Assembly (NCBI GenBank): GCA_040383345.1
Contig: JBEIDU010000002.1
Location: 5,608 to 69,607 of the forward strand
Direction of reading: 5' to 3'
From: Chitinophagales bacterium
GTDB lineage: Bacteria; Bacteroidota; Bacteroidia; Chitinophagales; JADJOU01
Length of the DNA: 64,000 nucleotides
The stretch's first letter is position 1; each line of letters begins with the position of its first letter. Both the position numbers and the translations under genes were made by a program. Below, in pieces: positions 1,729 through 25,948 of this stretch. The notes under the pieces are model-generated. The model was given only the letters and a program-made list of their open reading frames with translations, had not been told where the DNA came from and did no database searches.

Positions 1729-3690
1729 ATGAAAAATAGCACTTCAAATCACCACAAACTTAGCATTGCTGGATTAATAGTATCTTTGGGAATAATATAT
1801 GGAGATATTGGGACTTCTCCATTATATGTAATGAGTGCCATTATTGGTAAGCAAATGATTACCAAAGAGTTGATATATGGTGGGGTATCAGCTGTTTTTT
1901 GGACAATTACACTACTTACGACGATCAAGTATGTAATGATAACCCTTCAAGCAGATAATAATGGCGAAGGAGGAATTTTTTCATTATTTGCACTAATAAA
2001 AAGAAAAAGAAAGAAGAAGTATTTTATTTGGATAGCAATTCTTGGTGGATCTATGCTTCTTGCGGATGGTATTATTACGCCACCCATTTCTATTTCATCT
2101 GCAATAGAAGGGCTTATTGTTGTTTATCCCGAAATTCAAACGATTCCTATTGTTATAGCCATTATAGTATTAATATTTTTAATGCAACAATTAGGGACGT
2201 CAACTGTGGGAAAAAGTTTCGGACCTATTATGATGATTTGGTTTGGGATGTTAGCTGGCTGGGGTATTTATTATATTCTTAAAAATCCAGGGATATTGGT
2301 TGCGCTATCTCCACATTATGCTTTTAAAATGTTGTTCAATCCTAAGGGCTTTTGGCTTTTGGGAGCTATTTTTCTTTGTACTACAGGAGCTGAAGCGTTG
2401 TATTCGGATTTGGGGCATGTGGGTAGAGAAAATATACGTATTAGTTGGATTTTTGTAAAAACCGCTTTAATTCTCAATTATTTTGGGCAAGGTGTATGGC
2501 TTCTTCAGCACGAAGGACAATATTTGAATGGACAAAATCCATTTTTTGCTATGATGCCAAAGGAGTTTTTATTGGTTGGAATAGGGTTAGCTACTTTAGC
2601 GGCTATTATTGCATCACAGGCATTGATTAGTGGAAGTTTTTCGCTTATTAGTGAGGCGGTTCGTCTTAATATTTTCCCTAAAATTGAGATTAAATATCCT
2701 GCAGTTACATTGGGACAAATATATATTCCAATTATCAATAACTTTTTATTGATTGGATGTATTTCAGTAGTTTTATTTTTCAAAAAATCGGCTGCCATGG
2801 AAGCTGCCTATGGACTGGCAATTACGGTTACTATGTTGATGACTACATTGCTTCTGAGGGAATATTTAATTACAAAACGTCGTGCTCCTTTATTTATTTG
2901 GGTATTATTTTTGACCTATGTATTTGTTGAAGGTGCGTTCTTTGTAGCAAATCTTATCAAATTTACACATGGAGGTTATTTTACTTTAATTGTATCTAGT
3001 TTATTTATTCTTATCATGTTTAGTAGATGGCGAACTGTAAAAATTAAAGAAGCCTTGAGAGAATATGTGCCCATTAAAGATTATATCGATCAATTGATGG
3101 CATTGAGTAAAGATCAATCATTACCTAAATTTGCTACTAATTTAGTCTTCTTGTCTACTTCGCCCAAAGAAACAGAAATAGAATATAAAATCATATATTC
3201 TATTCTTCAAAAACAACCCAAAAGAGCTGATAATTATTGGTTTGTTCATGTACATGTAACCAAGAGTCCTTATACTTGCGAGTACAAAGTAGATACTATA
3301 GCCAAAGATGATGTATATAGAATTACTTTTTATTTAGGATTCAAAGTGGAAGAGAAAATTAGCCAATTTTTAAGAATAGTAATCGAAGATATGGTGAAAA
3401 AAGGTGAGGTAAATATTAATAGTCGTTATCATTCATTGAAAGAAAATAATATAGCGGGTGATTTTCGATTTGTGATATTGGAAGAGGTGTTATCTACAGA
3501 GAATCAACTATCATTTAAAGATCGATTGGCTATCAAAATTAATTTATGGCTAAAAAATATTACCACTACTCCTGAAAAATGGTTCAATTTGGATACCAAT
3601 TTGGTAATGGTAGAAAAAGTACCTTTGATTATCAAAACAGGTAATAAATCCGAACTGATTCGTATTACTGATCGACCAAATTATTTGTAG
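1729..3690 (+). CDS. kup: KUP/HAK/KT family potassium transporter
   Basis: GDIGTSPLYV motif, about 12 TM segments and a C-terminal cytoplasmic domain. Start moved from track position 1678 to ATG 1729 (MKNSTSNHH...) because of the -7 box at 1701. Confidence 0.9.
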   Translation: MKNSTSNHHKLSIAGLIVSLGIIYGDIGTSPLYVMSAIIGKQMITKELIYGGVSAVFWTITLLTTIKYVMITLQADNNGEGGIFSLFALIKRKRKKKYFIWIAILGGSMLLADGIITPPISISSAIEGLIVVYPEIQTIPIVIAIIVLIFLMQQLGTSTVGKSFGPIMMIWFGMLAGWGIYYILKNPGILVALSPHYAFKMLFNPKGFWLLGAIFLCTTGAEALYSDLGHVGRENIRISWIFVKTALILNYFGQGVWLLQHEGQYLNGQNPFFAMMPKEFLLVGIGLATLAAIIASQALISGSFSLISEAVRLNIFPKIEIKYPAVTLGQIYIPIINNFLLIGCISVVLFFKKSAAMEAAYGLAITVTMLMTTLLLREYLITKRRAPLFIWVLFLTYVFVEGAFFVANLIKFTHGGYFTLIVSSLFILIMFSRWRTVKIKEALREYVPIKDYIDQLMALSKDQSLPKFATNLVFLSTSPKETEIEYKIIYSILQKQPKRADNYWFVHVHVTKSPYTCEYKVDTIAKDDVYRITFYLGFKVEEKISQFLRIVIEDMVKKGEVNINSRYHSLKENNIAGDFRFVILEEVLSTENQLSFKDRLAIKINLWLKNITTTPEKWFNLDTNLVMVEKVPLIIKTGNKSELIRITDRPNYL

Positions 3691-3763
3691 ATATTTTATT
3701 TGAAAAAATAAGTTACTTTCAATAATCCTTCTTAGATTTACACTTTTATATAAATTTTGATTT

Positions 3764-4072
3764 GTGCAATTTTCAATTTATAATCTTAAGAAAATAGAAG
3801 AATTCATAAAAGAAGCGGGTTATCAACTTCGATATGAAAAAGGACAATTTAACTCCGGTTTTTGTATTCTACAAGATAAAAAAGTAGTTGTTATAAATAA
3901 ATATTTTACACCCGAAGTGCGTTTTTCTAAGTTGATTGACATTATAGCTACCATAGAATTTGATAGAGCTCAAATACAATCTGAACAAGGTCGAAAAACA
4001 TTGCAAAAGATTGATTTGCTTTTTGCACACGCCAATGAAATGAATTTTGATAATTCAACGCCTACAGAGTAA
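3764..4072 (+). CDS. Hypothetical protein (102 aa)
   Basis: ORF with a GTG start. Its TAA overlaps the ATG of the next gene (taATG at 4070-4074), suggesting translational coupling. No recognisable motif. Confidence 0.45.
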   Translation: MQFSIYNLKKIEEFIKEAGYQLRYEKGQFNSGFCILQDKKVVVINKYFTPEVRFSKLIDIIATIEFDRAQIQSEQGRKTLQKIDLLFAHANEMNFDNSTPTE

Positions 4073-4842
4073 TGCAGGAAAATAGTATAACGCTTTTGGG
4101 AACAGGTACTTCGGTAGGAATTCCAATGGTTGGGTGTTTATGTGAAGTATGTTTAAGTCCTGATATAGAAGATAAGCGATTACGAACTAGTGCTTTTGTA
4201 GTTTTTCAAGGAAAACATTTTTTGATTGATATTGGGCCAGATTTCCGTGAGCAGGCACTTCGCAATCAAATTAATAAAATTGATGCAATATTACTCACAC
4301 ATCCGCATCGCGATCATATAGGAGGCTTTGATGATATTAGAGGGCTCAATTTTGTACAAGAAAAATCCATCGCTTTATTTTCAAATACGCTTACTTGGAC
4401 AAGTTTAAAAAAGCAGTTTTATTATGCTTTTGACAATTTGGAATATGATGCTGTTCCCAAGGTGAATCCTATTATGATAAATGATGAAGGGTTTGATTTT
4501 GAAGGAATTAAAATTATTCCTATCCATGTTATGCATGGAAATATGCCTTGTCTAGGATATCGTTTTGGGAAAATGGCTTATCTCACCGATGTCAATTTTA
4601 TACCAGAAATAGAATTTGAAAAATTGAAGGATTTAGATGTTCTAATATTAGATTCTTTGCGAATAAAACAGCATCCTTCCCATTTCTCATTGGAAGAATC
4701 ATTGCATATTGCTGCACGAATTGGTGCTAAAAAAACATATTTTATTCATATAAGCCATCATATGGGGCTTCATAGGACTATACAACCGCATTTACCCGAA
4801 AACGTATTTTTTGGAATAGATAATCAACAGATTAATTTTTGA
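4072..4842 (+). CDS. MBL-fold metallo-hydrolase (PhnP-like)
   Basis: HPHRDHIGG (HxHxDH) motif, N-terminal CxxC region (GCLCEVC), 256 aa. Ends in TGA. Confidence 0.85.
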   Translation: MQENSITLLGTGTSVGIPMVGCLCEVCLSPDIEDKRLRTSAFVVFQGKHFLIDIGPDFREQALRNQINKIDAILLTHPHRDHIGGFDDIRGLNFVQEKSIALFSNTLTWTSLKKQFYYAFDNLEYDAVPKVNPIMINDEGFDFEGIKIIPIHVMHGNMPCLGYRFGKMAYLTDVNFIPEIEFEKLKDLDVLILDSLRIKQHPSHFSLEESLHIAARIGAKKTYFIHISHHMGLHRTIQPHLPENVFFGIDNQQINF

Positions 4843-6007
4843 TTAATTCCGCAACAAAAAATCCATCACCTTCATATTCATTAGGTAACAGCGTTTGCTT
4901 TTTGGTACATGTAAATCCTCTACTTTCTATCCATTGAACTTGGTCTTCATTCTCTGAAGGAAAAATGCTACAGGTAGAATAGATGAGCTTTCCGCCTGAT
5001 TTTAATGTGGGTATAAAATTTTCGATAATTTGTTTTTGAAGATGCCATTTTTCAATTAAAGGCGCTTCATAAATTCTGTATTTCAGGTCAGCTTGACGAC
5101 GAATCGTTCCACTACCACTACAAGGAACATCCATAAATAAAACATCCGCAAAGTTTTTGTATTTATCCATATTGGCATCATTAGCTATTTCTGTTTTTAC
5201 TTTTTTGCCAAACATACGAGCTACTCGCTTATCCAAATGTTTCAGTTTGGATTCTTCAATATCAAATGAAACCAATTGTATATTTTCAGCGGTAATATCC
5301 AAAATATGTGTTGATTTTCCACCATTTCCTGCACAAGATTCAATGATTTTTTTGGCTTTGGAAATATCTGAAAACTGGGAAATAAATTGTGAACCAATAT
5401 CTTGAATTTCAAAATGAGAGCCAAATTCTTCAAACAAAATATGATTTTTAGCAATAGGTTTTAAAAGTTTGATTACGGGTGCCATTTCTAATGTTTCACC
5501 AGCGTATTGTATATCGTTTAATACTTCAAATTCGATGTCATGTTCTGAAAGCGTATCGGCAAATATATCTATAGTTGTCTGTGATTGATTGACTCTTAAG
5601 AATATAGGCGCTACTTTGTGCATCGCTTTCCAAATGGCTTGAAAGTTTTCGCCAAGCTCTTTCGTCGCTAATTTAGCAAAAAGGCTTGGAACAGAATAGA
5701 GCGTTTCAAAAGGTAGCTCAGACTCGTATCTAACTTTAATTTCTTGAAAATCAAATTGATTTTCTTCATTTAAAAAATTCAGGTAGGTATCTAATATCGT
5801 TTCTTTTGATTCGGAGAAATGCATAAGAAATTCATAATGACGTACTATATCATATGTGCATTGTGCTATGGTTTTTCTATCTTTTGAGCCCCATTTTGGA
5901 TTGGCTTTGAATTGTTTTTGAATATAGGTATCTAATACGTTTTTATTTTGAATTATTTCCGTAATATTCTTTAATATTGCAGTCCTAAGATTGGGGAATA
6001 CTTTCAT
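4832..6007 (-). CDS. RsmB/NOP-family class I SAM-dependent RNA m5C methyltransferase
   Basis: SAM-binding ESCAGNGGKS, and catalytic motifs DVPCSGSGTIRR and YSTCS. Confidence 0.8.
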   Translation of the reverse strand: MKVFPNLRTAILKNITEIIQNKNVLDTYIQKQFKANPKWGSKDRKTIAQCTYDIVRHYEFLMHFSESKETILDTYLNFLNEENQFDFQEIKVRYESELPFETLYSVPSLFAKLATKELGENFQAIWKAMHKVAPIFLRVNQSQTTIDIFADTLSEHDIEFEVLNDIQYAGETLEMAPVIKLLKPIAKNHILFEEFGSHFEIQDIGSQFISQFSDISKAKKIIESCAGNGGKSTHILDITAENIQLVSFDIEESKLKHLDKRVARMFGKKVKTEIANDANMDKYKNFADVLFMDVPCSGSGTIRRQADLKYRIYEAPLIEKWHLQKQIIENFIPTLKSGGKLIYSTCSIFPSENEDQVQWIESRGFTCTKKQTLLPNEYEGDGFFVAELIKN

Positions 6008-6025: not shown

Positions 6026-8230
6026 ATGATTAAATTTGAAAAAAATACTGAAATTCAATTAGCAAAGAAACTCATTTTTGAAACAAACGAGTCACTTTTT
6101 TTGACAGGCAACGCGGGAACGGGCAAAAGTACCTTCTTAAAGGAAGTAATTTCGGAATGTCCCAAAAATAAAATTGTATTGGCGCCAACGGGTGTAGCCG
6201 CTATCAATGTAAAAGGAACTACCATTCATTCTTTTTTTAATTTACCTTTTACGCCCTTTAATCCTACAGAAAATTGGTCAGATAGTGATGAAGAAATTGG
6301 ATTGAGACAATTATTGTTAAAATTGCGCTACAATACCGAAAAAAGAGCACTTATCAAAGAACTCGATCTCATGATAATCGATGAAATTTCAATGGTGCGA
6401 GCTGATGTAATTGATGCCATTGATTTTATATTAAGACATTATAGAGATAATAGACACGAAGCATTTGGAGGGGTACAAGTCCTTTTTGTAGGGGATTTAT
6501 ACCAACTGCCGCCAGTAGCTAATGGAAGTACGTGGGATATCCTCAGCCGTTTTTATCGCTCGCCTTTTTTCTATGATTCGAAGGTTTTAGAAATGAAAGG
6601 CATTCATATAATTGAACTCAAGAAAATTTATCGTCAAAGTGACCCAATATTTATTAATATTCTAAATGCAATTCGGAATAATCAATTGACTGCATTAGAA
6701 AGGGATGCGCTCAATCAACGAAAAATTTCACCTCCCGAAGATTCCGAAGATTTGATTATCACGCTTACCACGCACCGTGCCATAGCGGATGAAATTAATG
6801 AAAGAGAATTGAGAAAATTGGACGGAACGGTTTATGTCTATCACGCCGAAATTTGGGGCGAGTTTAAAGAAAATTCTTATCCTATTGAGCCTATGATGGA
6901 ACTCAAAGTAGGTAGTCAAATTCTTTTTGTGAAAAATGATATCAGCTTTCCCCGAAAATATTTCAATGGAAAATTGGGTGTTGTGTCTCGGCTTACAAAA
7001 GATTCTATTTATGTGAAATCAAAAAATGAAGCGAATGAATGGGAAGAAATTCAAGTGAATAAAGATATTTGGACACAATATGAATACAATTTAAATATAG
7101 AAAAAAATAGGATAGAAGAGAAGGAAGTAGGAACTTTTCAGCATTATCCTATCAAGCTGGCTTGGGCCATTACGATTCATAAAAGTCAAGGATTGACATT
7201 TGAAAAAGTAAAACTGGATATACGCGATAGTTTTGTAAGCGGGCAAACGTATGTAGCCTTGTCGCGTTGTACTTCATTGGAAGGAATTTATTTGCTCAAT
7301 GAATATCCTTCAAGGCAATTAAATTATCCGAGTCATTTAATTGCATTTTCAAAAAATAGTATAGAAAACCAACGATTGGAAGAAACTATAGCGGATAAAA
7401 AAGATGCTTATTTAAAAAATGTATTACATCGAATTTTGAATCTCAAATCGATAAAAGATACGATTCAAGAAATTGTAGAACAATTTGAAGAAGCCAGAGA
7501 AAAAGTGAAAGGCAGCGATGAAATCTTATCTGAATTGCAAGAGGTAAAAACAAAATGGAAAGAAGTAGAAGGCGTCAATCAAAAGTTTTTGGCTCAGTTG
7601 CAGCATATTTTCTCAATAGAAGGGAAAATAGAGCGAGAAGCTATGCTCAATGAACGTGTGGAAAAGGCCGTTTTCTATTTTGGAAATCAATTAATTGAGG
7701 TAGTTTTGAATCCCATTATAGGCATTGAATCCAAGATTAAACTTTATTTTAGAATTGCACCGTTGAAAAAAGAATTGGAAATGAAAATTGCAGTTCTTAA
7801 AATGACGCTTTCAAAATTTGAAAAGCTCAAGCAGTATGGCGTTTGTCAGCATTCCGATTTTACCTCGTTAATTGAAAATTTGAAAACACTAGAACGAGAG
7901 GAATCTATTTCTAAGTCTAAAACAAAACAACCTACGCAAGAAATTACATTGGATTTGCTCAATGAAGGAATGAATGTAGCACAAATAGCCGAAGCTAGAA
8001 ATCTCACTACAGGAACTATTTACAATCATCTTTTCAAGCTTTTTGAGGATGATAAAATATCAATAAAGTCTATATTTAGCGATGAAGAATTTGAGCAAAT
8101 AAAAGCAGTAATGGCTTCATTGCCATCCGAAGCAGATTTTGCATACATTAAGGAAAAAAATATAGAGGTAGATTACAATATAATTAGATTTTGGCGAAAA
8201 AATCAGGAGAAAATAGAAAAGAAATTATAA
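6026..8230 (+). CDS. PIF1/RecD-like SF1 helicase with a long helical extension and a C-terminal helix-turn-helix domain
   Basis: Walker A GNAGTGKST, DEISMV, GDLYQLPPV, TIHKSQGLTF and YVALSRCTS motifs. The C-terminus NVAQIAEARNLTTGTIYNHL looks like an HTH. Confidence 0.85.
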   Translation: MIKFEKNTEIQLAKKLIFETNESLFLTGNAGTGKSTFLKEVISECPKNKIVLAPTGVAAINVKGTTIHSFFNLPFTPFNPTENWSDSDEEIGLRQLLLKLRYNTEKRALIKELDLMIIDEISMVRADVIDAIDFILRHYRDNRHEAFGGVQVLFVGDLYQLPPVANGSTWDILSRFYRSPFFYDSKVLEMKGIHIIELKKIYRQSDPIFINILNAIRNNQLTALERDALNQRKISPPEDSEDLIITLTTHRAIADEINERELRKLDGTVYVYHAEIWGEFKENSYPIEPMMELKVGSQILFVKNDISFPRKYFNGKLGVVSRLTKDSIYVKSKNEANEWEEIQVNKDIWTQYEYNLNIEKNRIEEKEVGTFQHYPIKLAWAITIHKSQGLTFEKVKLDIRDSFVSGQTYVALSRCTSLEGIYLLNEYPSRQLNYPSHLIAFSKNSIENQRLEETIADKKDAYLKNVLHRILNLKSIKDTIQEIVEQFEEAREKVKGSDEILSELQEVKTKWKEVEGVNQKFLAQLQHIFSIEGKIEREAMLNERVEKAVFYFGNQLIEVVLNPIIGIESKIKLYFRIAPLKKELEMKIAVLKMTLSKFEKLKQYGVCQHSDFTSLIENLKTLEREESISKSKTKQPTQEITLDLLNEGMNVAQIAEARNLTTGTIYNHLFKLFEDDKISIKSIFSDEEFEQIKAVMASLPSEADFAYIKEKNIEVDYNIIRFWRKNQEKIEKKL

Positions 8231-8275
8231 ATTTGTATTTTATTTGCATCTACCTAAATCAAATTCTTGCCTAAA

Positions 8276-8506
8276 ATGAGCGAAATGATTGAAAAATTAA
8301 ATAAAGCTTTGGAAAGCATACGTCCTTATTTAAAAGAAGACGGCGGTGATGTAGAGGTGTTGAGCCTTGATGAATGGGGTGTTGTGAAAATTAAGATGAT
8401 AGGTAATTGTAAAACATGTTTGCAACGTAATAGTACTATCAAAACAGGAATTGAATCGGTCCTAAAGTCTCAATTCCCTGAAATAAAAGAAGTAATAGAA
8501 GGTTAA
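8276..8506 (+). CDS. NifU-like (Nfu C-terminal domain) Fe-S cluster protein
   Basis: RPYLKEDGGDVEVL...GNCKTC...T motif. I prefer ATG 8276 over the track's TTG 8267. A TAaaTTTG box lies at 8228-8235. Confidence 0.8.
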   Translation: MSEMIEKLNKALESIRPYLKEDGGDVEVLSLDEWGVVKIKMIGNCKTCLQRNSTIKTGIESVLKSQFPEIKEVIEG

Positions 8507-8541: not shown

Positions 8542-8549
8542 TACCTTTG
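8542..8549 (+). promoter_or_regulatory. -7 box TAccTTTG upstream of hppA
   Basis: TAnnTTTG match 39 nt before ATG 8588. The same tacctttgc core recurs at 43048 and 58053. Confidence 0.55.
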
Positions 8550-8587: not shown

Positions 8588-11266
8588 ATGAGTAACAATT
8601 TGATTTACATTTTTCCATTTTTTGGAATAGCCGCGTTGATTTATATGTACTTTCTATCGGTATGGGTAAAGAAACAAGACGCTGGAGACAGCAAAATGAA
8701 GGAGATAGCAGATAATATTGCAGAAGGCGCTATGGCATTTTTGAATGCAGAGTATCGTATTTTGGCAGTATTTGTAGTAATTGCAGGTATTTTATTGGGA
8801 ATTTTATCTCAAGTAGTGGAAACATCACATTGGTTAATTGTTGTAGCTTTTGTTATTGGAGCTATTTTCTCTGCAGTAGCAGGAAATATTGGTATGCGTA
8901 TTGCTACTCAAGCGAATGTAAGAACTACACAAGCCGCTAGAACGAGTTTGGCAAAAGCCTTGAAAGTTTCATTCTCTGGTGGAATGGTAATGGGATTGGG
9001 TGTTGCAGGTTTGGCTGTATTAGGACTTAGCTTTTTGTTTATTTTATTCTTTCATAAATTTATGAATGGAGAATTTAATGCACAAAATGCTCTTGAAATG
9101 ACTAAAGTATTGGAAGTATTAGCAGGATTTTCGTTAGGTGCTGAATCTATTGCATTGTTTGCAAGAGTAGGTGGCGGTATTTATACAAAAGCGGCTGACG
9201 TAGGAGCGGACTTAGTTGGAAAAGTTGAGGCTGGAATTCCAGAGGATGATCCTCGTAACCCTGCAACTATTGCAGACAACGTAGGAGACAACGTAGGAGA
9301 CGTAGCAGGAATGGGTGCGGATTTATTTGGTTCGTATGTAGCTACCGTTTTGGCAGCGATGGTATTAGGAAATTATTTATTACAAAATCCAGCAAATGCA
9401 GGAATTTTCCAAGGATTTATGAATATTGGACCTATATTATTACCTATTGCAATTGCAGCAGTTGGTATCGTATGGTCAATTGTAGGTGGATGGCTAGTAA
9501 GTGTAAAAGATGACAATGGCGATGTACAAAAAGCGTTGAACATTGGAAACTGGGTTTCATTGATTTTGACCTTGATTACAGTTTATGGACTTATCAAATG
9601 GATGTTGCCAGTAGAAATGAATATGGCATTCTTTGGTGAAGAAAATAGAATGGTAACAAGCAATGGCGTATTTATTTCTACAATTATAGGTATGATTGTA
9701 GGCGCTGTTATTTCTTCAATTACGGAGTATTATACAGGAACAGGAACTAAACCAGTACTTGGAGTAGTTAGGCAGTCTGCTACAGGTGCAGCTACCAATA
9801 TTATTGCTGGATTGTCATTAGGAATGATGAGTACTTGGATGCCAATTGTATTGTTTGCTGCGGCTATAGTAGGTTCGTACCATTTTGCAGGATTCTATGG
9901 TGTAGCAATTGCTGCGGGTGCTATGATGGCTACTACAGCGATGCAATTAGCTATTGATGCTTTTGGACCTATTGCAGATAATGCAGGCGGTATTGCAGAA
10001 ATGAGTGGATTGCCAGAAGAAGTAAGAGGAAGAACAGATATTTTAGATTCAGTAGGAAATACTACTGCGGCTATAGGAAAAGGATTTGCTATTGCCTCGG
10101 CTGCATTGACTGCGTTAGCTTTGTTTGCTGCATATGTAACGTTTACAGGTATCGATGGTATTAATATTTTCAAAGCAGATGTTTTAGCGGCATTGTTTAT
10201 TGGTGCTATGATTCCAGTTGTTTTCTCTGCATTGGCAATGAGTAGTGTAGGAAAAGCTGCAATGGATATGGTTCAAGAAGTAAGAAGACAATTTAGAGAA
10301 ATTCCAGGTATTATGGAAGGAACGGCTAAACCAGAATATGGCAAATGTGTTGCTATCTCTACAAAAGCTGCATTGAGAGAAATGATGTTGCCAGGTTTAA
10401 TTACAATTGTTACACCTATTTTAGTGGGTGTAATTATGGGCCCTGAAGCATTAGGTGCTTATATGGCAGGTGTAACGGTTTCGGGTGTACTTTGGGCTAT
10501 TTTCCAAAACAACGCTGGTGGAGCTTGGGATAATGCAAAAAAATCTTTTGAAAAAGGTGTAGAAATTAATGGTGAAACAGTATACAAAGGTTCTGATGCA
10601 CATAAAGCAGCGGTAACGGGTGATACAGTAGGAGATCCATTCAAAGATACGTCTGGACCATCTATGAATATATTGATTAAATTGACATCATTGGTTGGTT
10701 TGACCATTGCGCCATTGATTGGATTGAAAGAGCATAATATGCCTGCTTTGCCAGAAACAAATGCACAAGTAGTCGAATTTAAAAATAATTTTGGAGAAAG
10801 TTTAGGTGCTGCTCTCAATATTACATTGCCAAATGGTGTTAGTTTTGATATTCCAGAAAAAGGTGTAGAAAATAAATTGTTCAATTTTTTGAGTAATTCT
10901 GCTATGATGGTTAATGATACTATATCATTTGATTTAGATAGAATAAGCTTTATATCAAGAAGTATAGAATTAGATTCTTCATCTAACAACCAGATAGAAT
11001 ACCTTGCTAATATGATGGTAGCTTATCAATCTTCAGAATTTAAAATTGAAGGATTTACGGATAATTCAGGCGATAAAAATGCTGATTTGAAATTGTCTTC
11101 CGAAAGAGCTAATTTTGTAATGAATGCTTTGATTGAAAAAGGTATTGCAAAAGAAAGATTAAAAGCAGAAGGATTTGGAGATACAAATCCATCATGTCCT
11201 GCAAACGATACGGAAGATTGTAAAAGCAGAAACAGAAGAATTTCATTGAAAGTATTAAAAAAATAA
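8588..11266 (+). CDS. hppA: Membrane-bound pyrophosphatase (A-type, K+-dependent-family signature) fused to a C-terminal OmpA-like domain
   Basis: Motifs [49 protein letters not shown] and NILIKL. The core ends near residue 712 (about nt 10723), and about 180 further residues follow with no stop. Confidence 0.9.
10928..11263 (+). other. OmpA_C-like peptidoglycan-binding domain at the C-terminus of HppA
   Basis: FDLDRISF...[49 protein letters not shown]...NRRISLKV fits the OmpA/MotB C-terminal pattern (TDxxG...N..LS..RA...GxG...NRR). Confidence 0.75.
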
Positions 11267-11288: not shown

Positions 11289-11317
11289 AAGGCGGTTGAT
11301 TTTTCAGCCGCCTTTTT
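11289..11317 (+). terminator. Intrinsic terminator after hppA
   Basis: Stem aaggcggttga / tcagccgcctt (one G-U pair), loop tttt, followed by a T-run. Confidence 0.7.
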
Positions 11318-11349
11318 ACATTAAAATAAGAGAAAGAAATCTTTTTAAT

Positions 11350-20347: not shown

Positions 20348-23300
20348 ATGAAAAAACTATATATAATTTGTTTGATTAGTCTCATTAATCTACTTATAGA
20401 TTCTTCATTGATTGCGCAAGCTTCCTCTTTAGTAGGGGCTGATTTGCAAATCAGATCTCTTGATCCAAATAATAATAGACTTATTGAGGTTAAACTAATT
20501 TACTATAGAGATTGCGCAGCAGTTAGTAGAAGAGGTGGCGGCGGTGGTAATATTAATACAAATGCAGTTGTAGTGTTTCAAAGTACAAAATGTTGTACTT
20601 TTTTAGTGGATACCCTTACATTAGATTTAGCCATTTCAAATAAGGAAGCAACTCCTATTTGTCCTACCAATCCTGCTATCACTACTTGTGATGTAGCCAC
20701 TGCTAGTAATCCAGGGTATAAAGCAGATATATATATAGATACGGTTCTCTTACCTGCAAATTGTGATGATTGGCACGTAGGGCATATGTGGTCTAGAACT
20801 CTTGCTTTTCAAAATTATTTAGATTCTAGCAATATAAAATTTCAATCTACCCAACCTCCAGCGGGAAGAGGAAGGGCTATTTTAGGACCTCCTCCAAACT
20901 TTGGCGCAAGAAGAAGTGGGAGTAATACCGCACCAAATAATCCAGATGTAACCGAGGCTGGATTTTATATCGAAAAAACATATAATAATAAAGTTGACAT
21001 TGGGGGAGGTAAATTTAGAGCAAACTCATCCCCAAGGTATTCTGCGAATCCATTGATTTTTCAATGTTCAAATAAATTAAGAACATATGATTTAGGGTAT
21101 TATGATGTAGATGGGGATGTCATGGAATTTGAACCTATGACCCCATTTAAAGATATAACAACAACTGTTGGGACTACTGGTTTTGGAAATGGAGTTCCCA
21201 TTACTTGGAATCCAGGATTTAGTGATGTAGCACCATTGGGGCCAAATGCAACATATATAGTTAATCCTTCAACGGGTGCAATTACATTTGAAGCGACTAA
21301 TGGAGTGGGATTCTATAAAACTGCAATAAAAATTACCGAAAAAGATCCTGTGACTTTAGCTGTAAAAGATATTTCAATGCGAGATATCATAATTACAATT
21401 GTGAATACTCCAAACTGTGCATTGGATAATACAGTAGGTGAAAAATCTGATTTTATCCCTGGTTACAAAAATTTTGTAAGCTGTGATACTGCTCCGAATC
21501 GTATAGATATGATACAGACATGTGCAGGAACTTCCATGTCTTTTGATATAGAAGCGGTAAGTAAATCTCCAATCCCAAATGCATCTATATTTATCGAGGC
21601 TGAAATTGATACAATTAGAATGAAAAATGCGAGTATAATATCGTCGTATAGACCTCAAAATTATCCAGTATATGATACTGGATTCGCTAAATTTATATGG
21701 AATGTACCAGCAAATATTGAGCCAGGAATATATCCTGTTATTTTTACGATTAGAGATTGTATTGATGGATATATACTTTCACGTCAAAAAATTGTTTATG
21801 TAAGAGTGAATAGAAAAGTTAATATAACTTCAGAATATCAAGGAATAAAATTAAAGCAAATAACATTACCGAGTGATCGAACCTATTTTTGTGATGGAGG
21901 ACTATATCCATTTTTATCTACAGAAAATGGAGAATTAGATGCACAATTTTCATGGAGAGATGTTCCTAGTGGTTGTGCTACTTTTGATACGTTTAATCAA
22001 GGAAATAAAATTAATTCACTAGCTTTTGTAAATAATATTTCTCAAGATTGCTGGATGATAGCTACAGCAAATCAATCATGTCTCAAAGATGATACATTAT
22101 TAATAAAAAAAGCAAATACATATACCCCTTCAGCTTCGTTAACTGCTCCAGATTATTGTCAAGAAACTCGAGGTCAAATAACCGTTTCAGGCGTTCCTGC
22201 AGGAACCATTTATGATTGGCAACGAGTAAGTGGATGTTTTGATGGAGGGATACCAAGTAAATTTCAAAATTTTGCAGACATGTATTTTTGTTCTCCAACG
22301 AATAATTTTGATGTATTTACAATTTCTCCAGATACTTGCATAATGCAAACATCCATAACCGAAGATACAAAAGGGATCAAACCCCTCATTTTATCTCTTA
22401 CAACAGATAAAACAAATGTATGTCCAAAAGATACAATTAGAGTAAGTAGCGTATTTATAACTCCTATTTGTGGAGAAGATCCATATAATACAATTATTGG
22501 ACCTACATTATACGCGGAATATCCAGGAGAAGAAAATAATCCAATAAAGTTGCCTCGTATTTTTGCTGGTTCAAAAGATGTAGAATACATGAGAACCCAA
22601 TTTATTTATTTAGCATCTGAACTTTCTGAAAATGGTTTTAAGCCAGGAAAAGTAAATTCTCTTGCATTTAATATAGAAGGTATTTCAAATCCAAGAAAGT
22701 ATAACGAGTTAACTCTAAGAGTTAAATGTTCAAATCGGTCTTCATTACAAGATTTAAAATATGAGGCAAAAGAAGATATGATTGAAATTTCAAAATTTGC
22801 TGGTTCAACTATTCTAAATGTGGGTTGGAATGAATTTAACCTAGCTAAAAATTTCTCTTGGGATGGAACATCAAATTTAATTTTTGAAGTTACAGCAGAA
22901 TGTGTAAAAGGAGATGTTGGCGCTACGTTGAATGTTCCTGTTATGGCTGATAATCAAGTAGGTTATGTAGCTACTATTGGTAGTTATTTTAAGAAAAATG
23001 AGTTTGGCTGGGATTCAGAAACTTTGGCAAGTACATTTACTAATTATAGACCTAATCTAAAATGGGGATACAATAAATTTGATACTACAAATGTGAAATT
23101 TACATGGACGGATCAACAAGGAAATAGCCCTTCGCCAGAATTAACCTTTGATCCAAGGGACACTATTTTTTCAAATCCAAAAGTTTCAGCAAGTAAAAAA
23201 TCTACATATTTTGCAACCTTAAGAAATGGATTATGTGTAAAAGATACCTTTGTAGTTGCTTTTTATAACGATAGTTTTAAGGTGAAAATTGACAGAAATT

Positions 23301-25948
23301 TTGTGAATAAATGTAATGATGATACTATTCAGTTAAAAACAACAGCAGGTAAAATATTACCTGTTTTTTATGAAATAAAATGTGGTAATTCAAATTTCCA
23401 ATGCAATGTTTCTGATACGGTTCGAAAAGCATTTGCTGGATTGGCAACCATTGTTTCTAATTTCAGCGTTTCTCCTTTTGGGGGTGTTTTAAATGCTGCT
23501 ACTGCAGAAAATACAACAGATAAAAGAATACAGTTAATTATTACTGCCGCTGAGTTAAAGGCAAATTTAGGAGTAGATACTGGATTGATTAATGGGATAT
23601 CTTTTGATATGCTCACAAAATCAACAAATTTTAATGCGATACAGAATTTTAAAATCAAATTGAAATGTATTTCAAAAGATAGTACTCAGTTTTCAAATAA
23701 TGTCTTTCATCAGGCAAATACATTTACAACTGTTTATCAAAATTCAAATTTATCTACCACTACAGGAAATAATTATTTTGCATTTAATAAGCCATATGGA
23801 TGGGATGGACAAAGTAATTTAATGCTTGATATTTGCTGGGATAATCCAGCTGGTAAAACCTATTTAGGAGATGCTGTTCGAGCTTCAACATATCTTCCAG
23901 CAGTTACTTCTAATAGAACCCTATTTAGAGGATCTAATGTAGGAACTGATTTTGGATGTGATTATCAAACGGGAACAAGATCCAATGTTCGCCCTAATAT
24001 AAATGTACATATATGTAGACCTACAGCGTCTCCACCACCATTACCATTGAATTATAATTGGGCGCCCAATGTAGAAATCAGCAATACACAAATCTCTAAT
24101 CCCATTGTCTATAATACAAACACAAGAAAGTATTTTGTATATTTAGATTATATTGATACTACTCTAAAGAAGTCTGTCTGCAGAGTTAGTGATACTGTTC
24201 TTGTAAAAGTGGGTAGACCTGACTTAAAGGTTCTTCCAGAAAAACCAGTTGCTTGTATAGGAAGTAGCACTGAAGTTGAATTAAGTACAAGTGCCATTCC
24301 GTCTCATATTTATAAATATAGATGGGAACCAAATCAACAGGGAATCGCTGTTGAAGACTCGGCTAATTCGTTTATTAGTATTACTCCTCCAAATCCTAAA
24401 TACTATTACGTAAAAGTATATAATTCTCAAAAACCAAATTGCTGGGCTAGAGATAGTATTTTTATCGATATTCAAAATTTAAGAACCATGCCACAAATAG
24501 ATGGTGTATCTATGATTTGCCAAGGAGATTCAGTAAGTTTATTTATTCCAGAACAAGTAGGTTATCAAAATCCTGTATGGTATGATGTAAATAATCAACC
24601 CTTGGGTAGTTCCTATAAAATAAAAGTAGGAGCAGCGGGTAAATATTTTGTAAAAGTAGACTCGGGTGCATGTAGAAATACATCAGATTTTAAAGTGGTA
24701 GAGTATAGAAAACAAGATACATTAAAAATGCCACAATATGATTATACATTATGTCAAGGCGATACGGCAATATTGTATTATGATATTAATAGTGGTTTGA
24801 TCGTGCCGCTATGGAGCAATGGATATTATGGCGTAAGTAATAAAGTGTCTTCTTCCGGTCAATATTTCTTGGTGAATGCAAGAGATCAATTTGGTTGTCC
24901 CTTGATTTTACAAGATACGGCCAATGTAACTGTGATAGATAATCCGGATTTTACAGTAGGGAATGACACATTGTGTTTAGCAATAAATCAAAAGAAAATT
25001 TTAATTCCAGATCCTTTAGACAATAATGCGGTATATCAATGGGATCCAATTAGACAAATTTCACCTACATTAGAAGTTAGTACTCCTGGAATATATACAG
25101 TGGTTCGTTCTATTGGAAAATGTACGAAGACGGCCTCGGTAACTGTTGTTGAAGAGCGCTTTGGAAAAGTAGATCTAGGTCCAAATTTCCCAATTTGTTG
25201 TGATGAAGTATCATTATTAGATGCCAATACACTAAATAAAAAGTACAATTCATATAAATGGTCTACAGGGGAAACAAGCCAATCTATTTTCACAAAGCCA
25301 AATGTATCAGGCGTATATGTAGTAGAAGCTATAAGGCCAAGTGGATGTAAAGATACAGGCTCTGTATATGTAGATGCTAAATGTACTAATTTGACCGCAA
25401 GACCTGAAAGAGATACCATTTATTTAGGAGAAACAAACGATGTGATTGGAAAACATTTGGATATAAAAAATACATATATTGAGTATAAATGGATGTCAAT
25501 GCAAGACTATAACAGAATTTCTAAAACAGATATGTTAAGGGGTTCTTCATATCCTACAGATTCTGGAGATGCAGAGTATGTTTTATTGATGACATTGGTA
25601 GACACATCATACAAACCTATAAAGAAATGTTCTGAAAATGCTGTAGTTCGATATAGAGTTTTACCAAATATAGTGAGTATACCAAATGTATTTTCTCCAA
25701 ATGGAGATGGTACAAATGATACTTATTTTCCTTTTGCAAAAGGATTAGTTGAAGTTACAGAGTTTAAAGTTTATAATAGACAAGGTCAATTATTGCATAA
25801 TGATGTAAATAAACCATGGGATGGGAATTTTAATGGTCAGCCTCAGCCAAACGGTGTTTATGTTTGTTTAATTTCTTATTATTCTCAAGATCCTAGGAAA
25901 GAAAAAGAAACAAAATATGTTCAAGTTAATTTAACACTTATTAGGTAG
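20348..25948 (+). CDS. Giant secreted adhesin-like protein with a T9SS type B (gliding motility-associated) C-terminal sorting domain
   Basis: 1866 aa with a signal peptide and many Cys-containing Ig-like repeats (C.GDS..L). C-terminal domain at 25673-25945: IPNVFSPNGDGTNDTYFP...WDGNFNGQPQPNGVYV. Confidence 0.9.
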   Translation: MKKLYIICLISLINLLIDSSLIAQASSLVGADLQIRSLDPNNNRLIEVKLIYYRDCAAVSRRGGGGGNINTNAVVVFQSTKCCTFLVDTLTLDLAISNKEATPICPTNPAITTCDVATASNPGYKADIYIDTVLLPANCDDWHVGHMWSRTLAFQNYLDSSNIKFQSTQPPAGRGRAILGPPPNFGARRSGSNTAPNNPDVTEAGFYIEKTYNNKVDIGGGKFRANSSPRYSANPLIFQCSNKLRTYDLGYYDVDGDVMEFEPMTPFKDITTTVGTTGFGNGVPITWNPGFSDVAPLGPNATYIVNPSTGAITFEATNGVGFYKTAIKITEKDPVTLAVKDISMRDIIITIVNTPNCALDNTVGEKSDFIPGYKNFVSCDTAPNRIDMIQTCAGTSMSFDIEAVSKSPIPNASIFIEAEIDTIRMKNASIISSYRPQNYPVYDTGFAKFIWNVPANIEPGIYPVIFTIRDCIDGYILSRQKIVYVRVNRKVNITSEYQGIKLKQITLPSDRTYFCDGGLYPFLSTENGELDAQFSWRDVPSGCATFDTFNQGNKINSLAFVNNISQDCWMIATANQSCLKDDTLLIKKANTYTPSASLTAPDYCQETRGQITVSGVPAGTIYDWQRVSGCFDGGIPSKFQNFADMYFCSPTNNFDVFTISPDTCIMQTSITEDTKGIKPLILSLTTDKTNVCPKDTIRVSSVFITPICGEDPYNTIIGPTLYAEYPGEENNPIKLPRIFAGSKDVEYMRTQFIYLASELSENGFKPGKVNSLAFNIEGISNPRKYNELTLRVKCSNRSSLQDLKYEAKEDMIEISKFAGSTILNVGWNEFNLAKNFSWDGTSNLIFEVTAECVKGDVGATLNVPVMADNQVGYVATIGSYFKKNEFGWDSETLASTFTNYRPNLKWGYNKFDTTNVKFTWTDQQGNSPSPELTFDPRDTIFSNPKVSASKKSTYFATLRNGLCVKDTFVVAFYNDSFKVKIDRNFVNKCNDDTIQLKTTAGKILPVFYEIKCGNSNFQCNVSDTVRKAFAGLATIVSNFSVSPFGGVLNAATAENTTDKRIQLIITAAELKANLGVDTGLINGISFDMLTKSTNFNAIQNFKIKLKCISKDSTQFSNNVFHQANTFTTVYQNSNLSTTTGNNYFAFNKPYGWDGQSNLMLDICWDNPAGKTYLGDAVRASTYLPAVTSNRTLFRGSNVGTDFGCDYQTGTRSNVRPNINVHICRPTASPPPLPLNYNWAPNVEISNTQISNPIVYNTNTRKYFVYLDYIDTTLKKSVCRVSDTVLVKVGRPDLKVLPEKPVACIGSSTEVELSTSAIPSHIYKYRWEPNQQGIAVEDSANSFISITPPNPKYYYVKVYNSQKPNCWARDSIFIDIQNLRTMPQIDGVSMICQGDSVSLFIPEQVGYQNPVWYDVNNQPLGSSYKIKVGAAGKYFVKVDSGACRNTSDFKVVEYRKQDTLKMPQYDYTLCQGDTAILYYDINSGLIVPLWSNGYYGVSNKVSSSGQYFLVNARDQFGCPLILQDTANVTVIDNPDFTVGNDTLCLAINQKKILIPDPLDNNAVYQWDPIRQISPTLEVSTPGIYTVVRSIGKCTKTASVTVVEERFGKVDLGPNFPICCDEVSLLDANTLNKKYNSYKWSTGETSQSIFTKPNVSGVYVVEAIRPSGCKDTGSVYVDAKCTNLTARPERDTIYLGETNDVIGKHLDIKNTYIEYKWMSMQDYNRISKTDMLRGSSYPTDSGDAEYVLLMTLVDTSYKPIKKCSENAVVRYRVLPNIVSIPNVFSPNGDGTNDTYFPFAKGLVEVTEFKVYNRQGQLLHNDVNKPWDGNFNGQPQPNGVYVCLISYYSQDPRKEKETKYVQVNLTLIR

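Follow-up and report, generated by a model that had tools for sequence, protein, structure and literature searches.

We describe here a membrane-integral pyrophosphatase (mPPase) gene that continues in frame into an OmpA-like, predicted periplasmic tail, located at positions 8588 to 11266 of a 64,000-nucleotide stretch of contig JBEIDU010000002.1 from a Chitinophagales bacterium (GCA_040383345.1); this whole stretch is referred to below as the window. The fusion of pyrophosphatase (PPase) and OmpA-like module is a real, conserved single gene. The architecture is not rare and is the majority state of one Bacteroidota mPPase clade, of which the window protein is a genuine, ordinary member and not a one-off. 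With a probability of about 0.75, we read the protein as a K+-dependent H+ pump, driven by inorganic pyrophosphate (PPi) and tethered to the sacculus by its tail.

The fused gene and its membrane core

The open reading frame (ORF) spans 892 codons on the forward strand with no internal stop, in agreement with the original prediction of one uninterrupted frame that passes from a PPase core into a long soluble extension. Pfam assigns amino acids (aa) 14 to 706 to PF03030 (H_PPase; E = 8.9e-263; 874.2 bits versus a threshold of 29.7; profile positions 1 to 644 of 645) and aa 788 to 876 to PF00691 (OmpA; E = 1.3e-13; 51.5 bits versus a gathering score of 27.2). Among NCBIfam models, NF001955 ("sodium-translocating pyrophosphatase") scored 1213.8 bits (cut-off, 1059) and TIGR01104 (V_PPase) scored 890.6 bits (cut-off, 651.9). 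OmpA-family NCBIfam models (YiaD, YfiB, Pal, MotB, and others) matched aa ~775 to 890 only, each below its own cut-off. The features of the gene are as follows.

8588..11266, + strand: whole coding sequence, mPPase plus OmpA-like module, 892 aa and stop (ORF, Pfam, NCBIfam)
8588..10723, + strand: mPPase core, aa 1 to 712, with 16 transmembrane (TM) helices (PF03030, alignment to 4A01 and 4AV3, AlphaFold2 [AF2], Foldseek, and Lys plus Arg bias)
9143..9145, + strand: E186, or E5.43, the semi-conserved gate glutamate at the Flavobacterium johnsoniae-type position (alignment to Vigna radiata)
10067..10069, + strand: A494, or A12.46, in GNTTAA, the K+-dependence determinant (sequence; comparison with relatives)
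10724..10810, + strand: linker, aa 713 to 741, predicted to be disordered (AF2 predicted local distance difference test score [pLDDT] below 50 for aa 714 to 737)
10811..10945, + strand: N-terminal extension of the tail module, aa 742 to 786, a predicted beta-hairpin plus helix (AF2, alignment)
10946..11263, + strand: OmpA-like, putative peptidoglycan-binding domain, aa 787 to 892 (PF00691, PDB matches, Foldseek)
11060..11107, + strand: D825 (11060 to 11062) and R840 (11105 to 11107), the putative diaminopimelate (DAP)-binding pair (BLASTP to 3TD3)
11195..11221, + strand: C870 and C878 (CPANDTEDC), a probable disulfide pair (co-occurrence in tails)

Several independent records carry the same fused frame. 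A public protein (P0123) is 100% identical to the 892-aa window protein, and a separate metagenome contig from the Joint Genome Institute (JGI; L001) contains a 99%-identical ORF behind the same helicase and NifU-like genes. An ortholog (P0004, locus L082) is 92% identical and has the same architecture and the same neighbors. PF03030 and PF00691 occur together in 105 of the 120 best database relatives, and the fused relatives include proteins from the complete genomes of Capnocytophaga canimorsus, C. cynodegmi, Moheibacter sediminis, and Flavobacterium croceum. Whether orthologs keep the tail had been raised as a check; they do so at 63 to 92% identity. In a codon-level comparison with L082, the ratio of nonsynonymous to synonymous substitution rates (dN/dS) came to 0.052 in the core and 0.149 in the tail module. 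It follows that this frame of the tail is translated and that purifying selection acts on it, about threefold more relaxed than on the core. When window positions 8588 to 11263 were compared with L001 positions 3001 to 5676, all 13 amino acid differences fell in the PPase core (core dS, 0.135), and the linker and tail were identical at the protein level (dS, 0.011). This mosaic divergence suggests a recent recombination tract over the 3′ end of the gene.

These data leave almost no room for an assembly or gene-calling artifact, in which a sequencing error or chimeric join would have run two adjacent genes, for a PPase and an OmpA-family protein, into one. What could be said for one is that the window resembles a metagenome-assembled contig, that the linker is poorly conserved and predicted to be disordered, and that in L007 a DUF937-OmpA gene follows a tail-less PPase at a distance of about 1.1 kb. 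However, the ORF is intact on the independent contig, with no stop or frameshift between core and tail in either copy; more than 100 relatives at 60 to 92% identity are fused, including those in complete genomes of cultured Capnocytophaga, Moheibacter, and F. croceum; the tail evolves in frame at a dN/dS of 0.15; and it has neither a signal peptide nor a TM segment of its own, one of which would be needed if it were a separate periplasmic protein. The artifact is effectively refuted.

The core had been predicted to end near residue 712. The HMMER alignment to the V. radiata H+-PPase (4A01) pairs query residue 711 with residue 755 of the 766-residue chain and thus stops 11 residues before the chain end, which places the boundary there. 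The catalytic acidic motifs quoted for the core are all present, in loops 5-6, 11-12, and 15-16, and are invariant across 44 relatives. A full-length AF2 model built on a 44-sequence alignment (mean pLDDT, 84.7) contains 16 long helices extending to residue 717, a low-confidence stretch at aa 714 to 737, and a confident globular domain at aa 742 to 891, an mPPase fold followed by an OmpA-like domain. Foldseek aligned the core with the V. radiata and Thermotoga maritima PPases (4A01, 6AFS, and 6QXA; also 4AV3) at target-normalized TM-scores of 0.88 to 0.91 and root-mean-square deviations of 2.2 to 3.0 Å (0.89 and 2.4 Å for the V. radiata H+-PPase). By profile match, predicted fold, and catalytic motifs, the core is a membrane-integral pyrophosphatase, a family with its 16 TM helices set in two concentric rings.

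Enzymes of this family are homodimers with 16 TM helices per subunit (PMC6882861). Topology was predicted by taking the most hydrophobic 19-mer in each of the 16 helices and summing the Lys and Arg residues of the loops on each side of the membrane. The side with all of the catalytic acidic loops (inside) has 35 such residues, and the other (outside) has 7. Since the number of segments is even, both termini would lie on the Lys/Arg-poor periplasmic side, and the tail is predicted to be located in the periplasm, as the original prediction supposed. In solved mPPase structures, both termini lie away from the cytoplasm, in agreement with this topology.

The predicted periplasmic tail and ion specificity

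The linker between the last TM helix (TM16) and the tail varies from 23 to 99 aa in relatives (median, 39 aa) and is sometimes of low complexity or Cys rich. The tail module (aa 742 to 892; ~150 aa) begins about 45 residues N-terminal to the Pfam OmpA domain, with an extension that has the motif LPxG..(L/F).(V/I)....E.KL..FL, in which E761 is invariant. The OmpA C-terminal pattern ending in NRRISLKV, which had been noted for this protein, is present, and the tail passes the PF00691 hidden Markov model at the score given above. Modeled alone by AF2, the module has a pLDDT of 90.9, and in the model it has the beta-alpha-beta-alpha-beta-beta fold of solved OmpA-like domains. Sequence searches of the PDB matched the tail to YiaD, Capnocytophaga OmpA-C, and the C terminus of Gloeobacter PsaB. 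Foldseek returned 6jfw, 5u1h, 5wtp, and 3td5 with a probability of 1.00 and E values of 5.8e-11 to 4e-09; the neighbors comprise PA0833-PD, OprF-C, Capnocytophaga gingivalis OmpA-C, and Acinetobacter baumannii OmpA-PD with a DAP pentapeptide (3TD5), followed by YiaD, YfiB, Pal, MotB-C (Helicobacter pylori), PorE-C, and TagL.

In A. baumannii OmpA, the residues that bind peptidoglycan DAP are D271 and R286 (PMC5974059), which correspond in 3TD3 to the Asp of GHTD and the Arg of LARA. BLASTP pairs these two residues with D825 and R840 of the window protein. Columns were counted over 114 nonredundant PPase tails. D825 is present in 114 of 114, R840 is Arg in 113 and Lys in one, and the NRR motif at aa 882 to 884 is invariant. 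Given this conservation, the tail likely binds the peptide stem of peptidoglycan via D825 and R840. Both cysteines of the C870/C878 pair occur in 87 tails, neither occurs in 25, and a single one occurs in 2; a C870-C878 disulfide is probable from this pattern and would fit an oxidizing periplasm.

The ion-gate and K+ positions were read from the alignment to the V. radiata enzyme. E186 aligns with V. radiata S235, which lies seven residues ahead of R242 (R5.50), and it therefore occupies position 5.43. Positions 6.53 and 6.57 are Gly247 and Ala251 (DLFGSYVA), with Glu at neither. By an established rule, mPPases with Ala at position 12.46 are K+ dependent and those with Lys are K+ independent; from A12.46, we infer that the window enzyme is K+ dependent. 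The pattern GAES/DLFGSYVA/GNTTAA is found in 120 of 121 full-length sequences. Glu at 5.43 is what characterizes the F. johnsoniae enzyme, an unusual K+-dependent H+-PPase (PMC6882861, Table 1), and has been argued to be incapable of supporting Na+ binding (PMC6882861, PMC10897367). Characterized Na+ transporters carry Glu at 6.53, and the F. johnsoniae enzyme is tabulated as an H+ pump (PMC6882861, PMC10897367). The window core resembles that enzyme in its signature residues (E5.43 in GAES, no Glu at 6.53 or 6.57, and A12.46) and is more than 60% identical to the cores of named Flavobacteriia enzymes. Specificity for H+ rather than Na+ is thus probably the better prediction, and the database label "sodium-translocating" is probably generic, since the gate residues fit an F. 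johnsoniae-type H+ pump. The F. johnsoniae K+-dependent H+-translocating mPPase was reportedly characterized by Luoto et al. in 2011.

Distribution, origin, and gene surroundings

A profile of the tail was scanned over one genome per GTDB species, and the 80 best tail matches were counted. They include 15 E5.43 PPase fusions in Chitinophagales, Cytophagales (Spirosoma, Larkinella, and Arcicella), and Flavobacteriales, a number that takes in two Bacteroidota contigs cut within the gene (one without the 5.43 region and one without all three motifs) and one metagenome-assembled genome (MAG) labeled Phycisphaerales. The fusion in the latter (L035), on a 9.2-kb contig, has E5.43, a core 67% identical to the window core, and a Bacteroidota-like Cys-rich linker; L035 is probably a misbinned Bacteroidota contig and not a planctomycete gene.

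In a neighbor-joining tree of the cores, OmpA tails are found in every major branch, and tail-less forms are scattered inside tail-bearing groups. Some tail-less forms retain 19 to 70 low-complexity residues after TM16, and two groups have Cys/Lys-rich tails. A split-gene account of the tail-less relatives was rejected: the DNA downstream of two tail-less PPase genes, L083 and L084, contains no OmpA ORF, and by these two genes the tail-less cases are clean losses. The simplest history, as it appears from the tree, has a single fusion in a Bacteroidota ancestor and repeated losses later on. A tail-only, word-indexed protein search returned 2 matches, which might be taken as rarity of the tail; this is a sensitivity limit of that search, and whole-protein and exhaustive HMMER searches show that the module is common.

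Cysteine-rich segments accompany some relatives. In a subclade with P0024, P0027, and P0138, the OmpA module is replaced by a 100- to 130-residue Cys/Lys-rich tail with 15 to 23 cysteines and repeats such as EKSCCKKDKK and CCxKD, which looks like a periplasmic metal-binding or redox segment. In P0063, P0069, P0115, P0117, and P0121 (F. croceum and others), a Cys-rich insert of ~60 residues with 8 to 11 cysteines (for example, CDMSKCATMSKDECAKMCD) lies between TM16 and the OmpA module, and these fused PPases total 951 to 968 aa.

The module also occurs outside PPases. Searched exhaustively with HMMER, the 152-residue module matched 2,918 representative proteins at an E value of ≤1e-10. None of the best 150 matches in this 50%-identity representative library is a fused PPase of ~900 aa; the library is unfit for counting fusions because the whole clade collapses into a few clusters. 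The best full-length matches, at 41 to 47% identity, are ~400-aa proteins in which DUF937 (PF06078) is followed by a TM helix, a low-complexity linker, and the module, and ~230-aa OmpA proteins. Between the PPase tails of Cytophagales and such stand-alone modules, identity reaches 75%. The DUF937-TM-OmpA proteins occur in Bacteroidota, Acidobacteriota, Gemmatimonadota, Myxococcota, and Proteobacteria and share the same 150-residue module with its hairpin-helix extension (query positions 3 to 152). Because they share this arrangement, the series of TM helix, flexible linker, and module may be regarded as a recurrent, portable wall tie for inner membrane proteins. Their N-terminal part, however, is an uncharacterized DUF937 domain and not a pump, and they give no explanation of the tether.

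A Deminuibacter MAG (L007) carries in succession a tail-less E5.43 PPase (13 to 2094), a 200-aa protein of Ala/Lys/Thr repeats that has a hydrophobic segment at its N terminus (2242 to 2844), and a 422-aa DUF937-TM-OmpA protein with the same module as the PPase tails (3197 to 4465). This gene order could be a coincidence or a hint at the origin of the fusion. A Rhodanobacteraceae MAG (Gammaproteobacteria; L023) encodes an 896-aa PPase-OmpA protein with GNTTKA (the K+-independent type), an Ala/Thr/Pro-rich linker, and the same extended module. It is apparently an independent fusion, since its core shares only 48% identity with that of the window protein and its tail is closest to stand-alone modules.

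Two candidate signals flank the window gene.

8542..8549, + strand: candidate promoter element TACCTTTG, which fits TAnnTTTG, 39 nt 5′ of the ATG (read from the sequence)
11289..11324, + strand: intrinsic-terminator-like hairpin, an 11-bp stem with 6 G-C pairs followed by a T run, 23 nt past the stop

The upstream element was picked out by its fit to TAnnTTTG, which we take to be the Bacteroidota −7 promoter consensus (Bacteroides/Flavobacterium). With the downstream hairpin, it makes the PPase-OmpA gene look monocistronic. A sigma-70 promoter scan gave no more sites than shuffled sequence. The G+C content of the whole window is 32.7%, and no Rfam family reached its gathering score across the 64 kb (no tRNA, rRNA, or riboswitch). 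Directly 5′ of the PPase are genes for a 734-aa PIF1-like helicase with a C-terminal HTH_40 domain (6026 to 8230, + strand) and a 79-aa NifU-like protein (8267 to 8506, + strand). The order helicase, NifU-like gene, PPase is kept in L001 and L082 and not in remoter relatives. A conserved operon partner was sought among the neighbors and rejected: they encode an RsmB-like methyltransferase, the PIF1-type helicase, the NifU-like protein, a sugar nucleotidyltransferase, and an epimerase, which are housekeeping genes replaced by others in other lineages. A Kup-type K+ uptake transporter (PF02705 and PF22776; 1678 to 3690, + strand) lies 5 kb 5′ of the K+-dependent PPase and is probably unrelated to it. 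A very long ORF of 1,866 aa (20348 to 25948, + strand) lies 3′ of the region studied.

Role of the tail and related systems

The protein would work as a homodimeric, K+-dependent, PPi-energized inner membrane pump, most likely for H+ and of the F. johnsoniae type, with its gate glutamate at 5.43. TM16 would exit to the periplasm and be followed by a flexible linker of ~29 residues and the OmpA-like module of ~150 residues, which would bind the peptidoglycan peptide stem (DAP) noncovalently through D825 and R840. The pump would thereby be tied to the sacculus with two anchors per dimer. Such a tether may limit lateral mobility or set the position of the pump, or it may add a tie between the inner membrane and the wall. 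The tail would not be needed for catalysis, since several lineages have lost it cleanly, and the repeated loss, the linker range of 23 to 99 residues, and the lack of a conserved partner gene suggest an accessory, noncatalytic role. Most economically, the tail can be read as a portable anchor for inner membrane proteins.

Several points weigh against a wall-tethered H+ pump. Repeated loss shows that the tail is not essential, and the core tree from which this history is drawn carries no support values. The 29-residue linker is, by our estimate, near the minimum needed to bridge the gap between inner membrane and peptidoglycan. The best NCBIfam model is the one named "sodium-translocating." In addition, the window tail departs from the clade at near-invariant residues (W780S, G821E, Y823F, and Y863F) and evolves about three times faster than the core, so the function of the tail could be weakening in this lineage.

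Alternatives were considered for both the ion and the tail. The tethered enzyme might be an Na+ (or Na+/H+) pyrophosphatase that builds a sodium-motive force, which we consider unlikely although it is the foremost of the alternatives. NF001955 scores above its cut-off, JGI calls the relatives "K(+)-stimulated pyrophosphate-energized sodium pump," and A12.46 places the enzyme in the K+-dependent type, to which, to our knowledge, all known Na+-PPases belong. However, position 6.53 is Gly and the glutamate is at 5.43, as in the F. johnsoniae H+ pump, and the NCBI name is used generically on many mPPase models. Somewhat less probable still is a tail that serves as a protein-interaction or regulatory domain, either docking to an outer membrane or periplasmic partner, as in YfiB-YfiR, or gating the pump by the state of the envelope, as in the MotB plug and linker. 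YfiB and the PorE C terminus, which belong to signaling and secretion complexes, are among the structural neighbors of the tail; the hairpin-helix extension with its invariant E761 is conserved; and some relatives have Cys-rich segments inserted before the module. Yet invariance falls precisely on the putative DAP-binding pair of Asp and Arg and on the NRR motif, the neighboring genes are housekeeping and lineage specific and suggest no partner, and a disordered linker of 23 to 99 aa suits a tether better than an allosteric coupler.

The departures at near-invariant positions also raise the idea that the tail is here a decaying relic, inherited from the ancestor of the clade and no longer functional. 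The window protein and its closest relatives replace W780, G821, Y823, Y863, and other residues at which the 92%-identical ortholog keeps the consensus, and sister lineages have lost the tail altogether. Decay nevertheless seems improbable: the tail dN/dS of 0.15 is far below 1; D825, R840, NRR, and both cysteines are kept; the window's own tail is the one that AF2 folds at a pLDDT of 90.9; and it is identical in the independent contig. The window tail is thus derived but probably functional, since binding residues and a confident fold are retained. An extension of the tether reading, in which tethering is coupled to pumping, is about as doubtful as decay of the tail. The pump, held at defined sites, would then be a local, ATP-independent source of proton motive force for nearby Bacteroidota envelope machines that run on it, such as the GldLM motor of gliding and the type IX secretion system or TonB-dependent uptake, or engagement of peptidoglycan would gate the pump by the state of the envelope. 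If so, this would be the first primary ion pump with an output under spatial or mechanical control of the cell wall, and the independent fusions of the module to K+-dependent and K+-independent mPPases would reflect convergent selection. We retain the plain tether to the sacculus as the preferred reading.

Work on mPPases has approached them as primary ion pumps of minimal design, as targets for drugs against protists and Bacteroides, and as enzymes that help cells to survive stress. The mPPase literature that we found treats them as free-standing membrane proteins; here, a whole E5.43 Bacteroidota clade appears to have ancestrally carried a conserved, putatively peptidoglycan-binding module. 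This raises a testable question, namely, what benefit a wall-tethered pump brings to the cell, and cultured hosts with the architecture are available in Capnocytophaga, F. croceum, and Spirosoma. It also bears on annotation, where "sodium-translocating" labels are set on proteins with gate residues of the H+-pumping type.

The architecture itself is already known: it is visible in databases through precomputed Pfam assignments and has been noted for another clade (PMC11210485). The original prediction is upheld as to the fusion, found in 105 of 120 relatives. It made no claim on how common the architecture is, which proves widespread, machine annotated, and mentioned in that review, and it was silent on the F. 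johnsoniae-type gate signature (E5.43). Literature searches for mPPase with OmpA or peptidoglycan binding returned only this 2024 PeerJ review. It reports an OmpA-like domain at the C terminus of mPPases from Paucibacter and related Burkholderiales, says of this domain that its role "remains to be elucidated," and leaves Bacteroidota unmentioned (PMC11210485); the mPPase literature found describes no tail on the E5.43 clade. As far as we found, the clade-wide ancestral fusion in the E5.43 H+-PPase group is undescribed. The Paucibacter sp. KCTC 42545 enzyme (UniProt A0A0U2VTE8; 810 aa) likewise has an mPPase core followed by an OmpA-like domain (PMC11210485). It differs in being predicted to be K+ insensitive, with an extra domain of ~110 residues, whereas the window enzyme is of the K+-dependent E5.43 type with a 150-residue module; the two fusions are probably independent.

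Stand-alone OmpA-like domains (A. baumannii OmpA-PD [3TD3/3TD5], Pseudomonas aeruginosa PA0833-PD [6JFW] and OprF-C [5U1H], and Escherichia coli YiaD [2K1S]) share the fold of the tail, with target-normalized TM-scores of 0.74 to 0.83, and the same DAP-binding Asp and Arg. They come from outer membrane proteins or lipoproteins and are 26 to 30% identical to the window tail. In MotB/PomB, TagL, and PorE, an OmpA-like domain on a flexible linker reaches the wall from a membrane-embedded, ion-motive machine, much as is proposed here. MotB, however, is a single-pass protein with a TM helix that forms the channel together with MotA, and its anchoring is needed for torque to be transmitted; the membrane part of the window protein is a primary pump complete in itself, with 16 TM helices, and it lacks a MotA-like partner and any evident need of a mechanical reaction force. 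A stator anchor of the MotB/PomB/ExbD type, which has a single TM helix bearing the channel Asp and works with a MotA/PomA/ExbB partner, was accordingly rejected: the protein is a 16-TM pyrophosphatase, no MotA- or ExbB-like gene is adjacent, and MotB models score 45.9 bits versus a cut-off of 250, over the OmpA part only. An older parallel is PsaB of the thylakoid-less Gloeobacter violaceus, a protein of photosystem I and unrelated to the PPases. Its C-terminal extension of ~155 aa is reminiscent of a peptidoglycan-binding or outer membrane protein domain and has been hypothesized to anchor photosystem I to peptidoglycan; it is not resolved in the structure (PMC11565984). Like the window protein, PsaB is an energy-converting, polytopic cytoplasmic membrane protein with an OmpA-like domain at its periplasmic C terminus, and the window tail matches PsaB residues 751 to 863 (PDB 7F4V, chain aB) with an E value of 4.1e-08.

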